DNA of 64,000 nt. Origin: Escherichia coli. Lineage in GTDB: Bacteria > Pseudomonadota > Gammaproteobacteria > Enterobacterales > Enterobacteriaceae. Position 1 is the first letter of the stretch; each line of letters opens with the position of its first letter. The stretch lies in NCBI RefSeq assembly GCF_001677475.2, contig NZ_CP015229.1. One strand, written 5' to 3'. The notes below the pieces were generated by a model. It was not told the origin of the DNA and ran no database searches. It was given only the letters and a program-made list of their open reading frames with translations. Positions 14,162-38,668 of the stretch are shown here, piece by piece. The position numbers and the translations under genes were made by a program.

Positions 14162-14530
14162 TATAGGTCCTGGATGTGGGATTTTTTTATCCTGTTAGCG
14201 ACCTTGACGAGTACCAAAAAGCGCGAAGTTCAACTATTGTTCTGTGGTGTTCTGTTGCGTGTTGACGGCAAAATTTTGCTGGCGTAACATGCGCGCACGA
14301 TCACTCTAAGAGGACATTCGCCTTGGACACACCCAGTAGATACTGGCTCACTATCCTGTCATCCAGGATCAACTCCTAAGGCTATCCCTTTTTGCTGATA
14401 GCCTTAGCGGTTGTCAGCGACCTCAATTTTTCCCGTCGCGCTGAGTCAGGCTGTTTAATGGTCTGAAACCCAATTTGTTTCTGTGTGCCCACCGAACTGT
14501 CCGATATTTTAAGCATTGGGAGTCCCGGTC

Positions 14531-15481
14531 ATGCTGAGCGCATTTCAACTGGAAAATAACCGACTGACCCGGCTGGAAGTCGAAGAGTCACAACCCCTTG
14601 TAAATGCAGTATGGATTGATCTTGTCGAACCGGACGACGACGAGCGACTGCGCGTACAATCTGAACTTGGTCAGAGCCTGGCAACCCGCCCGGAACTGGA
14701 AGACATCGAAGCATCGGCACGTTTCTTTGAAGACGATGACGGCCTGCATATTCACTCCTTCTTCTTCTTTGAAGATGCGGAAGATCACGCCGGTAACTCC
14801 ACTGTGGCATTTACCATCCGTGATGGTCGTCTGTTTACTCTGCGTGAGCGTGAACTGCCTGCATTCCGTCTGTATCGTATGCGTGCCCGTAGCCAGTCGA
14901 TGGTAGACGGTAATGCCTACGAGCTGCTGCTGGATCTGTTCGAAACCAAAATCGAACAGTTGGCAGATGAAATTGAAAATATCTATAGCGACCTGGAGCA
15001 GTTGAGCCGGGTGATTATGGAAGGGCATCAGGGCGATGAGTACGACGAGGCGCTCTCCACGCTGGCGGAACTGGAAGATATCGGCTGGAAAGTTCGCCTG
15101 TGTCTGATGGATACCCAGCGCGCGCTCAACTTCCTGGTACGTAAAGCACGCTTACCGGGTGGGCAACTGGAGCAGGCGCGTGAAATCCTGCGAGATATCG
15201 AATCCCTGCTGCCGCATAACGAATCCCTGTTCCAGAAGGTGAACTTCCTGATGCAGGCGGCGATGGGCTTTATCAACATCGAGCAGAACCGCATCATCAA
15301 AATCTTCTCGGTGGTATCCGTCGTGTTCCTGCCGCCGACGCTGGTCGCTTCCAGCTATGGGATGAACTTTGAGTTTATGCCGGAACTGAAGTGGAGTTTC
15401 GGCTACCCTGGCGCGATTATCTTTATGATCCTCGCGGGCCTGGCACCGTATCTGTACTTTAAGCGCAAGAACTGGTTGTAA
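14531..15481 (+). CDS. corA: Magnesium/cobalt transporter CorA
   Basis: ORF 14516-15481; start at [12 protein letters not shown] gives 316 aa; YGMNF signature. Confidence 0.95.
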
Positions 15482-15488
15482 AAATAAG

Positions 15489-15518
15489 GCGGTGGCTTAG
15501 CCTGGCTAAGCCACCTGT
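15489..15518. terminator. Bidirectional rho-independent terminator between corA and yigF
   Basis: Hairpin GGTGGCTTAG-CCTGG-CTAAGCCACC with T-rich flanks on both strands. Confidence 0.55.
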
Positions 15519-15521
15519 TAT

Positions 15522-15902
15522 TCAAAGGCTCCAGGTATTTAACCCTTTTACCTCTTTCTCATAAAACCATTTGTTCGTGTTAACAGCAACATAGGCTGCT
15601 ACGGCAATTCCCAGAATGTTAACGCCAATTAGTGCACCAACAAATAGAGATAGAATGCCAAGTAATAGAACTATAATTGCTTTTTTCCATAATCCTAGAA
15701 CAAATAAATAGATCCAGGAACAGAAGAAAGCAATGAAATTCATTTGAATAGTTAATCGTTGTCTTACTTTTAATGTTTTAAATGCTGCTTTATATTCTGG
15801 TGTTGCCCCCCAGAATCCAGGAAAGCCATGTTGATCATAAAAATTAAATCGGTATTTCCATTTTTCACTTAATGAACCATCGTTCATATATTCCTTACTC
15901 AT
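15522..15902 (-). CDS. yigF: DUF2628 inner-membrane protein YigF
   Basis: ORF 15522-15944, start at internal Met for 126 aa; AT-rich. Confidence 0.75.
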   Translation of the reverse strand: MSKEYMNDGSLSEKWKYRFNFYDQHGFPGFWGATPEYKAAFKTLKVRQRLTIQMNFIAFFCSWIYLFVLGLWKKAIIVLLLGILSLFVGALIGVNILGIAVAAYVAVNTNKWFYEKEVKGLNTWSL

Positions 15903-15915
15903 AAATACACCATAA

Positions 15916-16296
15916 CTATTGTTTTGATGAATCAGTAGGTGCAAGCATTAGCATACTGAAAGTGGAAAAATAACAAATCAAAAAAATCATCGAACCATTG
16001 CCTGAACAATCAAAATGTTCGGCTATCATTGTGATGATAGAGATGATATATACTGCTAATGTACCAAAAACATAAGTTTTTATATATATGAAACCACTAT
16101 CACGGAGTCGTTGGCAATTCATGTTGATGACGAGATAATGGAGTGCGATGGTAGAGACAATAACAAGAAAACCTGCGTCCCCATCGTTAAAAAAGATAAT
16201 AAGAAAGGCAAAAATGAAATTTATTAAAATAAATGAAAATATATAACGACGTCTGGAAATCTTACCGTTAGATGTTGGGATAAATATACGCAACAT
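15916..16296 (-). CDS. yigG: DUF805-like inner-membrane protein YigG
   Basis: ORF 15916-16356, start at internal Met for 126 aa; AT-rich. Confidence 0.7.
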
Positions 16297-16390
16297 AAAT
16301 TTTACATCCTTGTGTGAGTCTCCTGTCAGCATGGCAATATGCCCACTCTCATGCAAGAGTCGGCATATTTTTTCAGAATATATTTATTTT

Positions 16391-17281
16391 TTATTTGGAC
16401 GTTCTACGCTGCGTATAAATCGCATCCATCACAAAAATTGCCAGCGCCACCCAAATAAAGGCGAAAGTCACCATCTTATCGGCACCCGGTTTTTCACCAT
16501 AAAACGTCACAGCCAGCAGGAACATCAGTGTCGGGCCAATGTACTGGAAAAAGCCTAACGTTGAGAGACGCAGGCGTGTCGCAGCTGCAGTAAAACACAA
16601 CAGCGGTACGGTAGTGACAATACCGGCAGCGATCAGCAGTAAATTCAGCGATATCGGGTTTTGCCCCATATGGCTGGTTGCGCTGTCGGCAATAGCAAAC
16701 AGGTAAATCGCCGCCACGGGCAGCAACCACATGGTTTCGATTAACATGCCGGTTTGCGCTTCAACGGCAATCTTCTTTCGTACCAGGCCGTAGAAGGCAA
16801 AACTAAACGCCAGCCCCAGCGCGATGATCGGCAGTGAACCAAAAGTCCACAACTGAACCAACACGCCACATATCGCCAGAATCACCGCCAGCCATTGCAT
16901 CCGGCGGAATCGCTCGCCGAGGAAAATCATCCCCAGCACAATGTTCACCAGCGGATTAATAAAGTAACCAAGGCTTGCTTCCAGCATATGGTGATTGTTC
17001 ACCGCCCAGATAAACAGTAGCCAGTTGCCACCAATCAGCACGGCAGAGACTGCCAGCATAAAAATTTTCTGTGGCGTCCGAATCAGCGTTTTTAAATAGG
17101 ACCACTGGCGGCAAATGCTCATCAGCACCACCATAAAGAAAAACGACCAGATCACGCGATGCGTCAGGATCTCATCGGCGGGCACGTAGTAAATCAGCTT
17201 GAAGTACGCTGGCGCAATACCCCAAATAAAATAAGCGGCAAGAGCGAGTAATACGCCCTGCCGCGTTTGTTTTGCATCCAT
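16391..17281 (-). CDS. rarD: EamA/DMT-family transporter RarD
   Basis: 296-aa polytopic membrane ORF. Confidence 0.9.
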   Translation of the reverse strand: MDAKQTRQGVLLALAAYFIWGIAPAYFKLIYYVPADEILTHRVIWSFFFMVVLMSICRQWSYLKTLIRTPQKIFMLAVSAVLIGGNWLLFIWAVNNHHMLEASLGYFINPLVNIVLGMIFLGERFRRMQWLAVILAICGVLVQLWTFGSLPIIALGLAFSFAFYGLVRKKIAVEAQTGMLIETMWLLPVAAIYLFAIADSATSHMGQNPISLNLLLIAAGIVTTVPLLCFTAAATRLRLSTLGFFQYIGPTLMFLLAVTFYGEKPGADKMVTFAFIWVALAIFVMDAIYTQRRTSK

Positions 17282-36835: not shown

Positions 36836-37645
36836 TTATTTTTTAACACCATACTGCTTAAACCACTCCAGCATACGCTGCCAGCCATCTTTTGCAGATG
36901 CGGCATGATAGCTCGGGCGATAATCAGCGTTGAATGCATGCCCGGCGTCCGGGTACACGATAATCTCTGCTTTCGCATTAGCAGCCCGCAGCGCCTGGCG
37001 CATGGTTTCAACGCTCTCCTGCGGAATGCTGTTATCCTGACCACCATATAAGCCGAGAACCGGCGCGTTAAGATCGGTTGCGATATCAACAGGTTGTTTC
37101 GGTGAATTCAGCGACTTATCGCCTGTCAGTTTGCCGTACCATGCCACCGCCGCTTTCAGTTGCGGGTTATGCGCAGCATACAGCCAGGTGATACGTCCAC
37201 CCCAGCAGAATCCGGTGATCATTAAACGATGAACATCGCCGCCGTTGCGGGAAGCCCAACTGGCGACATGATCGAGATCGGCCAGCACCTGCGAGTCAGG
37301 CACTTTTGCTACCAGACCGCTAAGCAACGTGGGGATATCGGCAAAATCATTCGGATCGCCTTCGCGGAAGTAAAGTTCAGGTGCGATAGCCAGATATCCC
37401 TCCAGCGCCAGACGGCGACAAATGTCGCGGATATGTTCATGCACGCCAAAAATTTCCTGCACTACAATGACCACTGGCAGTGGGCCATCGCTTTGCTTTG
37501 GTCTGGCATGGTAAGCAGGCATGTTATCCCCTTGTGAGGGGATAGAGGTGAAGCCCGCCGCAATCGCGTCGTCCGGGGTCTGAACGATGGTCGAAGCGAG
37601 AGGCGATGCAGCAGGTGCAAATCCAGATTGTTGTGTTGTTGCCAT
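36836..37645 (-). CDS. ysgA: Dienelactone hydrolase-family protein YsgA
   Basis: ORF 36836-37711; start at MATTQQSGF; alpha/beta hydrolase. Confidence 0.85.
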   Translation of the reverse strand: MATTQQSGFAPAASPLASTIVQTPDDAIAAGFTSIPSQGDNMPAYHARPKQSDGPLPVVIVVQEIFGVHEHIRDICRRLALEGYLAIAPELYFREGDPNDFADIPTLLSGLVAKVPDSQVLADLDHVASWASRNGGDVHRLMITGFCWGGRITWLYAAHNPQLKAAVAWYGKLTGDKSLNSPKQPVDIATDLNAPVLGLYGGQDNSIPQESVETMRQALRAANAKAEIIVYPDAGHAFNADYRPSYHAASAKDGWQRMLEWFKQYGVKK

Positions 37646-37763
37646 GGTATTCTCCGTACCCTTATAAAAATGTTGCGCAATGTTAACTATAGTCAGCATG
37701 CAACAAATCACATTGCCTGAATCGGCTCATCTTTTATGCAGTCCTGCAGAATGAAGAGTGATT

Positions 37764-37840
37764 TATGTGATTTGCATCACTTTTGGTGGGTAAATTTATG
37801 CAACGCATTTGCGTCATGGTGATGAGTATCACGAAAAAAT
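37764..37840 (+). promoter_or_regulatory. udp promoter with CRP (and CytR) binding sites
   Basis: TGTGATTTGCATCAC near 37766-37780 and GGTGATGAGTATCACG near 37817-37838 match CRP consensus. Confidence 0.55.
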
Positions 37841-37906
37841 GTTAAACCCTTCGGTAAAGTGTCTTTTTGCTTCTTCTGACTAAACCGATTCACAGAGGAG
37901 TTGTAT

Positions 37907-38668
37907 ATGTCCAAGTCTGATGTTTTTCATCTCGGCCTCACTAAAAACGATTTACAAGGGGCTACGCTTGCCATCGTCCCTGGCGACCCGGATCGTGTGG
38001 AAAAGATCGCCGCGCTGATGGATAAGCCGGTTAAGCTGGCATCTCACCGCGAATTCACCACCTGGCGTGCAGAGCTGGATGGTAAACCTGTTATCGTCTG
38101 CTCTACCGGTATCGGCGGCCCGTCTACCTCTATTGCTGTTGAAGAGCTGGCACAGCTGGGCATTCGCACCTTCCTGCGTATCGGTACAACGGGCGCTATT
38201 CAGCCGCATATTAATGTGGGTGATGTCCTGGTTACCACGGCGTCTGTCCGTCTGGATGGCGCGAGCCTGCACTTCGCACCGCTGGAATTCCCGGCTGTCG
38301 CTGATTTCGAATGTACGACTGCGCTGGTTGAGGCTGCGAAATCCATCGGCGCGACGACTCACGTTGGCGTGACGGCTTCTTCTGATACCTTCTACCCAGG
38401 TCAGGAACGTTACGATACTTACTCTGGTCGCGTAGTTCGTCACTTTAAAGGTTCTATGGAAGAGTGGCAGGCGATGGGCGTAATGAACTATGAAATGGAA
38501 TCTGCAACCCTGCTGACCATGTGTGCAAGTCAGGGTCTACGTGCCGGTATGGTAGCGGGTGTTATCGTTAACCGCACCCAGCAAGAGATCCCGAATGCTG
38601 AGACGATGAAACAAACTGAAAGCCAAGCGGTGAAAATCGTGGTGGAAGCGGCGCGTCGTCTGCTGTAA
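37907..38668 (+). CDS. udp: Uridine phosphorylase
   Basis: ORF 37901-38668; start at [11 protein letters not shown] gives 253 aa. Confidence 0.9.

Follow-up and report, generated by a model that had tools for sequence, protein, structure and literature searches.

How does a short, extremely AT-rich block of DNA come to lie between two conserved core genes, and what do the genes within it do? This question is raised by yigF and yigG, which are located between corA and rarD at positions 15522-16390 of a 64,000-nucleotide stretch of an Escherichia coli chromosome (RefSeq assembly GCF_001677475.2, contig NZ_CP015229.1), referred to below as the window. Our analysis makes it highly likely that the block is an old two-gene yigG-yigF cassette, silenced by H-NS and resident in a recombining slot between corA and rarD, whose products probably form a conditional membrane complex. 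The source chromosome is that of an E. coli strain other than K-12: the block is 97.4% identical to that of MG1655 and 99.5% identical to that of strain MEI003, and the names yigF and yigG were taken from the annotation of matching RefSeq E. coli genomes.

Base composition and gene content of the block

The block contains 33.5% G+C, in comparison with 52.3% across the window (z = -7.3). It ranks in the lowest 0.065% of all 869-bp windows and represents the minimum of the 64 kb; elsewhere, outside the block, the lowest value for a window of this size was 0.456. In a 300-bp profile the G+C content is 0.31-0.35 over approximately 15500-16400 and 0.49-0.56 on both flanks. The original prediction, which was made from the letters of the sequence, had described the segment as AT-rich with long A/T runs and as coding for two small membrane proteins, and it was correct on these points: a sliding-window calculation placed the block far below the normal range, the two cited runs were located at 15969-15992 and 16079-16095, and both genes code for membrane proteins of 126 amino acids. 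The G+C content at third codon positions (GC3) is 0.27 in yigF and 0.31 in yigG, as compared with 0.56-0.63 in corA, rarD, yigI and pldA, and hydrophobic amino-acid content alone is therefore insufficient to explain the AT-richness. Apart from the block, the 300-bp profile falls below 40% G+C (minimum 0.38) only at 37606-37969, a stretch which covers a gap and the adjoining ends of two genes, a 291-amino-acid open reading frame (ORF) on the minus strand and a 255-amino-acid ORF on the plus strand, and resembles an ordinary promoter region.

yigF (15522-15902) and yigG (15916-16296) are ORFs of 126 codons each, both on the minus strand. YigF is a DUF2628 inner-membrane protein according to its match to Pfam PF10947 (40.3 bits against a cut-off of 23, E = 4.5e-10), its RefSeq annotation and its AlphaFold2 model, and it is 40-45% identical to DUF2628 homologues of Pseudomonas. 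The N-terminal domain in the model (predicted local distance difference test score, pLDDT, of 88.9) comprises approximately 55 residues and lacks predicted membrane helices; two long transmembrane helices come after it. YigG is a member of NCBIfam NF008474 (the YigG equivalog family; 251.9 bits against a curated cut-off of 217), which was modelled as a membrane bundle of four helices (pLDDT 86); alignment of the family revealed two motifs conserved across genera, RxRD(S/T)G and DCxxxG. The ratio of nonsynonymous to synonymous substitution (dN/dS) was 0.03-0.15 for YigF and 0.15-0.27 for YigG, in comparisons spanning dS values from 0.09 to more than 2. Given these low ratios at high synonymous divergence, together with the confident structural models, yigF and yigG are real genes kept by purifying selection. 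A non-coding RNA within the block was rejected as a candidate, since the Rfam matches were sub-threshold and at chance level only.

We also considered whether YigG belongs to DUF805 (PF05656), the family of E. coli YhaH and YhaI. Like these, YigG is a small multi-helix inner-membrane protein, and both the N-terminal G-R-x-S/R-R-x-x-Y motif of DUF805 and its R-L-R/H-D-x-G motif following helix 2 have counterparts resembling them in YigG. In contrast, all scores of the YigG family are below threshold (at most 22 bits against 25.7, with 13 of the 16 members at 13-22 bits), and YigG is predicted to have four helices. Bona fide membership of DUF805 was not supported by these scores. The profile-profile alignment of YigG with YhaH/YhaI by hhalign was not significant (probability 0.4%); a remote homology of the two families is possible.

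The arrangement of the two genes indicates one operon. In the window yigG and yigF are separated by 13 nt (15903-15915, minus strand), and in other genera they are 4 nt apart or overlap by 4-8 nt. The YigG family is tiny: a profile search of 1.84 billion representative proteins yielded 25 members at E ≤ 0.001, and every member whose context was checked, down to approximately 25% identity, is encoded directly upstream of a DUF2628 gene. This adjacency holds in Escherichia, Salmonella, Kosakonia, Atlantibacter, Superficieibacter, Pseudescherichia/Buttiauxella and Enterobacter sp. Bisph1, and also on one metagenomic contig outside the rarD-corA slot, with an overall spacing range of +13 to -8 nt. 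The constant adjacency, order and close spacing across divergent lineages are those of a two-gene operon, and are good evidence that the two products work together; YigG and YigF probably form a membrane complex. Upstream of yigG, the region 16297-16390 (minus strand) contains an AAGGA ribosome-binding site and a presumed promoter, as judged from the sequence.

The corA-rarD slot and its alleles

The yigFG block is one allele of a multi-allelic cassette slot, which the original prediction had missed. When the window was aligned with the corresponding loci of K-12, AR_0086 and strain 109, the four sequences were nearly identical up to the corA stop codon and again from approximately 16402, within the last rarD codons; in between identity broke down, the alternative loci having unrelated sequence there. 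This alignment delimits the exchangeable AT-rich cassette to 15482-16401, i.e. from the base following the corA stop codon to the last 3-4 codons of rarD. We found no description of a corA-rarD hotspot, or of polymorphism of this slot, in the searchable literature.

The contents of the slot were counted by junction-specific searches of 5,426 complete E. coli genomes, for three modules: yigFG, a DUF3289/DUF943 effector-immunity pair (“the pair” in the counts below) and a third cassette, designated X. The yigFG module was detected in 2,961 genomes, and approximately 45% of the genomes have no yigFG in the slot. It occurs alone in approximately 2,660 genomes (~49%; a figure derived as 2,961 - 299), and this commonest state of the slot is the one carried by the window. 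The pair is stacked with yigFG in 299 genomes (5.5%), combined with X in 1,401 (26%) and alone in 928 (17%); these three states sum to 2,628, in agreement with the total of 2,627 genomes containing the pair. X was present in 1,431 genomes in total. All of the modules are AT-rich (32-35% G+C in E. coli, 34-45% in other genera). An IS1A insertion was noted in the slot of at least one E. coli genome (H17, NZ_AP027721.1).

The yigFG module itself exists in E. coli as a K-12-type allele and a deeply diverged type which closely matches the E. albertii proteins. The products of the two alleles are 69% (YigF) and 77% (YigG) identical, with flanks above 96%, and the dS between them is 0.66-1.3 versus 0.08-0.17 in the flanks.

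The second module consists of a DUF3289 (YPO3983 family) gene and a DUF943 gene, shown to encode a colicin-M-like periplasmic toxin and the protein that confers immunity to it (PMC11148199). A DUF3289 protein of Aeromonas is an effector dependent on the type VI secretion system; it is neutralised by the product of an unannotated downstream immunity gene, and the immunity protein proposed for it is a small membrane protein with three transmembrane helices (PMC12135965). Like yigFG, the pair is composed of two AT-rich genes transcribed in the same direction in the same slot, side by side with yigFG in the stacked genomes. In contrast, its proteins have no sequence or fold relation to YigF and YigG, and the pair is absent from the window itself. 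An orphan DUF943 gene with no DUF3289 partner was observed between yigF and corA in Escherichia whittamii (locus L016, 5882-6379).

Cassette X encodes a 128-amino-acid protein and a divergently oriented membrane protein of approximately 100 amino acids with no family match (L001, 1607-1993 on the minus strand and 2194-2508 on the plus strand; in Salmonella, L027, 3623-4474). The 128-amino-acid protein scored 26.5 bits against NF008474, for which the cut-off is 217, and is therefore a remote relative of YigG rather than a member of the equivalog family. X is found in O157/O111-type E. coli, and its YigG homologue was left unannotated by RefSeq in strain 109. Salmonella enterica is mostly of the X type (thousands of assemblies), with yigGF in some serovars. 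The X proteins of E. coli and Salmonella are only 48% and 58% identical, and both cassette types are therefore old in both genera.

Several scars point to recombination within the slot. In the pair-only locus of ETEC4068, a BLAST comparison with the window showed that 16307-16506 has been kept at 99% identity, together with a remnant of the 5′ part of yigG (16210-16260, 94%), and the segment 16307-16390 is retained beside rarD even in genomes with no yigFG. The 51-bp yigG remnant and the upstream region of the pair-only genomes therefore indicate that these derive from a stacked ancestor by deletion. In stacked loci, a corA 3′ fragment of 147-271 bp is duplicated between the modules, and in loci of the Atlantibacter type a 192-bp rarD 3′ fragment directly abuts the corA fragment. 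The duplicated fragments are located at L009:3065-3211 and L005:3672-3819 in E. coli, and at L007:4429-4910 and L017:5816-6275 in the Atlantibacter-type loci. The sharp breakpoints, the duplicated corA′ and rarD′ fragments and the yigG remnant all argue for recombination mediated by the flanks, and this structure suggests that a second cassette may be added by single-crossover integration of a circularised corA′...rarD′ fragment. The 3′ ends of the two conserved core genes, corA (14531-15481, plus strand) and rarD (16391-17281, minus strand), whose positions follow the annotation, would act as the recombination arms, as their duplicated 3′ copies indicate.

Close to corA, the cassette contains a G+C-rich hairpin at 15491-15515, situated between the corA stop (15481) and the yigF stop (15522), i.e. 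between convergent gene ends. It is a perfect inverted repeat of 12+12 nt with an 11-bp stem (7 G-C pairs), a 3-nt loop, and the T-run tails TGTTATTCAA on the plus strand and GCCTTATTTT on the minus strand, and thus has the sequence features of a bidirectional intrinsic terminator. The terminator which the original prediction had placed on the corA side was therefore recovered as a terminator-like hairpin on both strands, predicted from sequence. Since the aligned X cassette differs in sequence here, the hairpin is a part of the cassette and not of the conserved flank. It probably insulates the convergent transcription units, halting transcription from both sides.

In its sharp breakpoints, its several unrelated modules and its homologous recombination in the flanks, the slot is similar to the integration or replacement hotspots found between core genes. 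It differs from them in being very small (0.9-3 kb), in accepting two-gene modules only, and in that two of its module types occur both in E. coli and in Salmonella, where they are deeply diverged alleles. Upstream of corA, an 18-codon ORF at 14323-14379 (plus strand) corresponds to ysgD (YsgD/CorL family) in related RefSeq annotations.

Age of the cassette and H-NS silencing

At least eight enterobacterial genera carry yigG and yigF in the rarD-corA slot. Within Escherichia the carriers comprise E. coli, E. albertii, E. whittamii, E. marmotae and Escherichia sp. E1V33, and within Salmonella enterica they comprise serovar Senftenberg and strain LT2, the latter judged from knockout primers. Kosakonia cowanii, Atlantibacter subterranea, Superficieibacter electus, Pseudescherichia vulneris and a Buttiauxella sp. 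also carry the two genes in the slot, as do two strains labelled Enterobacter. Relatives of YigG are patchily distributed, with only 7 loci among 100,044 species-representative genomes.

The proteins of E. coli and Salmonella are 83% (YigF) and 55% (YigG) identical, and the dS between the orthologues (2.2 for yigF and 1.6 for yigG) is at or above that of the flanking genes (0.6-1.6), i.e. saturated. In both genera GC3 is 0.27-0.34. Because third positions are so poor in G+C in the two lineages despite saturated synonymous divergence, the AT-richness of yigFG looks maintained rather than a relic of transfer. It is less extreme elsewhere: the Kosakonia genes have 44-48% G+C (GC3 of 0.56-0.57), and in Pseudescherichia/Buttiauxella and Enterobacter sp. 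Bisph1 the slot has ~44-45% G+C versus 56-58% in the flanks.

The block had initially been attributed to ancient horizontal acquisition. The distribution supports the first part of this statement, since the genes are old and syntenic in the same slot of at least eight genera; the horizontal part was not demonstrated, as neither a donor, nor mobility genes, nor a restricted recent distribution was found. A classical genomic island was rejected, with no tRNA gene, integrase or flanking direct repeat detected at the locus. A plasmid or phage origin was also rejected after tblastn searches: the matches in the plasmid collection were mislabelled chromosomes or chromosomal fragments carrying recQ, pldA, uvrD and corA, and the two matches in the phage collection were both unannotated records of 1.6-3.5 kb. 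Two such “plasmids”, Salmonella Senftenberg “plasmid 4” (L031, NZ_LN868946.1) and Kosakonia cowanii “p888-76-2” (L032, NZ_CP019447.1), contain recQ, pldA, yigI, rarD, corA and uvrD in chromosomal order, and two 4.9-Mb E. coli records are whole chromosomes. A 1,564-bp contig assigned to a metagenome-assembled genome of an “uncultured Alistipes sp.” (L014, CASFSC010000152.1) encodes a YigG 97% identical to that of E. coli, and is almost certainly an E. coli contamination of the bin.

The likely silencing of the block by H-NS, also anticipated from its composition, is supported by published binding, repression and occupancy data for K-12. The yigF-yigG region was the example of a “promoter island” shown in Fig. 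1 of PMC3661553, where the 663-bp island is listed as bound by H-NS in all compiled chromatin immunoprecipitation studies (Table 1, code “A”), and its genes as foreign by two composition-based predictors, those of Nakamura and of Lawrence and Ochman. A promoter within yigG is one of six treated as H-NS-repressed intragenic promoters, and depends on an AT-tract and on residue R451 of sigma-70 (PMC7229825). The primers for the corresponding “yigG 1.2” fragment map to 15996-16145 of the window (minus strand) with 1 and 3 mismatches, and this segment, which matches the H-NS-repressed sigma-70 promoter, is in the sense orientation, pointing towards yigF. Moreover, yigF, yigG and rarD are covered by a small extended protein-occupancy domain, which has been presented as an example of silencing (bioRxiv 10.1101/2020.01.29.924811, Fig. 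7C). The H-NS reading of yigF-yigG is therefore already published for K-12, and the low G+C content of the block relative to the window is that expected of a xenogeneic-type, H-NS-silenced locus.

The locus is thus literally a published case among promoter islands, extended protein-occupancy domains and loci of xenogeneic silencing in K-12. Unlike prophages and classical islands, it has no mobility genes, a position constant across several genera, and genes under purifying selection. The term “xenogeneic” is in this case a description of composition, and not of a demonstrated foreign origin.

Function and competing explanations

Taken together, these data can be accommodated in one scheme. Transcription of the yigG-yigF operon, on the minus strand, runs from the rarD end of the slot to the corA end, and its products are two small inner-membrane proteins. 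The cassette fills the gap where the 3′ ends of corA and rarD converge, and its own hairpin probably stops transcription both ways. Low G+C at all codon positions makes the block a substrate for H-NS; published K-12 data show that H-NS and other proteins coat it, that little transcription occurs there and that promoter-like sites are abundant. The two genes are old residents of this slot in the Enterobacteriaceae, held by purifying selection rather than recently imported. Homologous recombination in the conserved ends of the two core genes probably swaps or stacks the slot contents, the outcome being E. coli strains with yigFG, the DUF3289/DUF943 pair, X, or combinations of these. The presumed YigG-YigF membrane complex is probably expressed only on relief of H-NS silencing, and probably affects the envelope or the cell surface.

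The only phenotype reported so far comes from a study of Salmonella, in which deletion of yigG reduced attachment to polystyrene, spinach and tomato and abolished growth of strain LT2 at the higher chlorine dose (PMC3579871). The gene deleted in that study lies between rarD and yigF, as its knockout primers show. The same authors reported that serovar Enteritidis lacks yigG, as would be expected if that serovar carried the X cassette.

Several observations weigh against parts of this scheme. With respect to protein function, searches of solved structures with the YigG and YigF models gave no match, PADLOC matched neither protein to a known anti-phage defence system, and neither contains an informative domain. 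The DUF2628 genes of Pseudomonas are solitary, with no YigG-like partner and in unrelated contexts, and the partnership with YigG is therefore not universal to the DUF2628 family. The Salmonella phenotype was modest and only partly complemented, and may include a polar effect on yigF; in addition, PMC3579871 states 82% identity to K-12, versus the 55% measured here for YigG (YigF, 83%). A simple sigma-70 scan found 2 promoter-like sites in the block versus 3.8 expected in composition-matched shuffles; the absence of an excess means that the “promoter island” property follows from base composition. Finally, H-NS silencing in the present strain is extrapolated from K-12, at the sequence identity given above.

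Against an old resident cassette one may set a recently acquired foreign island whose base composition has not yet become host-like. The G+C content of the block, 19 points under the window average and low at all codon positions, its classification as foreign by the two predictors, and the patchy distribution of YigG (the 7 loci and 25 cluster representatives mentioned above) could all be read in this way. We nevertheless regard recent import as very improbable: synteny across at least eight genera largely refutes it, the orthologues of E. coli and Salmonella are equally AT-rich in spite of synonymous saturation, and the locus has no integrase, tRNA gene or flanking direct repeat and no counterpart on genuine plasmids or phages. 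Even lower is the probability we assign to the notion that coding is incidental and that the AT-rich DNA itself is functional, e.g. by nucleating H-NS or by insulating the convergent corA and rarD units from each other. The similar AT-richness of alternative modules with unrelated genes, the extension of the published occupancy domain over rarD, and the fact that each cassette brings its own hairpin beside corA would suit such a role; the strong purifying selection on both ORFs and the protein motifs conserved across genera speak against it, showing that the proteins themselves are important, and the composition of the Kosakonia genes shows that extreme AT-richness is not required at the slot.

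An alternative that concerns the proteins themselves is that YigG and YigF are orphan immunity-type or inter-bacterial antagonism proteins, which shield the envelope from a competitor's toxin. The same slot houses a type VI effector-immunity pair in nearly half of the genomes searched (2,627 of 5,426), with experimentally supported homologues (PMC11148199, PMC12135965), and the orphan DUF943 gene of E. whittamii adjoins yigF. The wide separation of the yigFG alleles within E. coli, between flanks that are nearly identical, and the yigGF/X polymorphism common to E. coli and Salmonella would fit long-term balancing selection of the kind acting at antagonism loci, and the Aeromonas DUF3289 immunity protein is likewise a small three-helix membrane protein. 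However, no cognate toxin gene adjoins yigGF in the window or in at least 15 related loci, and the DUF3289 protein encoded alongside yigFG in the stacked genomes already has its own DUF943 immunity. The low dN/dS values do not indicate diversifying selection, orphan immunity arrays do not usually take the form of a two-gene unit conserved so strictly, and the proteins match no known immunity family; the shared recombination hotspot may be a coincidence. An antagonism role is, in our opinion, distinctly unlikely, and we prefer to regard yigG-yigF as an old, silenced cassette coding for a conditional membrane complex.

That yigF-yigG is AT-rich and coated by H-NS was known from K-12, and in this respect our analysis adds nothing new. 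What it adds is incremental, although we did not encounter it in the searchable literature: the multi-allelic nature of the slot, the presence of a type VI pair in approximately half of complete E. coli genomes, the occurrence of the yigGF and X types in both E. coli and Salmonella, and evidence that the AT-richness of the locus is maintained. The persistence of AT-richness at a vertically stable site raises the question of whether it reflects selection for silencing or mutation bias under H-NS, and a second question is whether YigF and YigG have an envelope or competition role. A bolder proposal, to which we give a small chance of being right, is that balancing selection has long kept the slot polymorphic, and that yigGF and X have coexisted there since before, or across, the E. 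coli-Salmonella split, AT-rich and H-NS-silenced throughout and repeatedly joined by the type VI pair. If this were true, YigG, YigF and the X proteins would represent an unrecognised class of envelope-protective or antagonism-related membrane modules.

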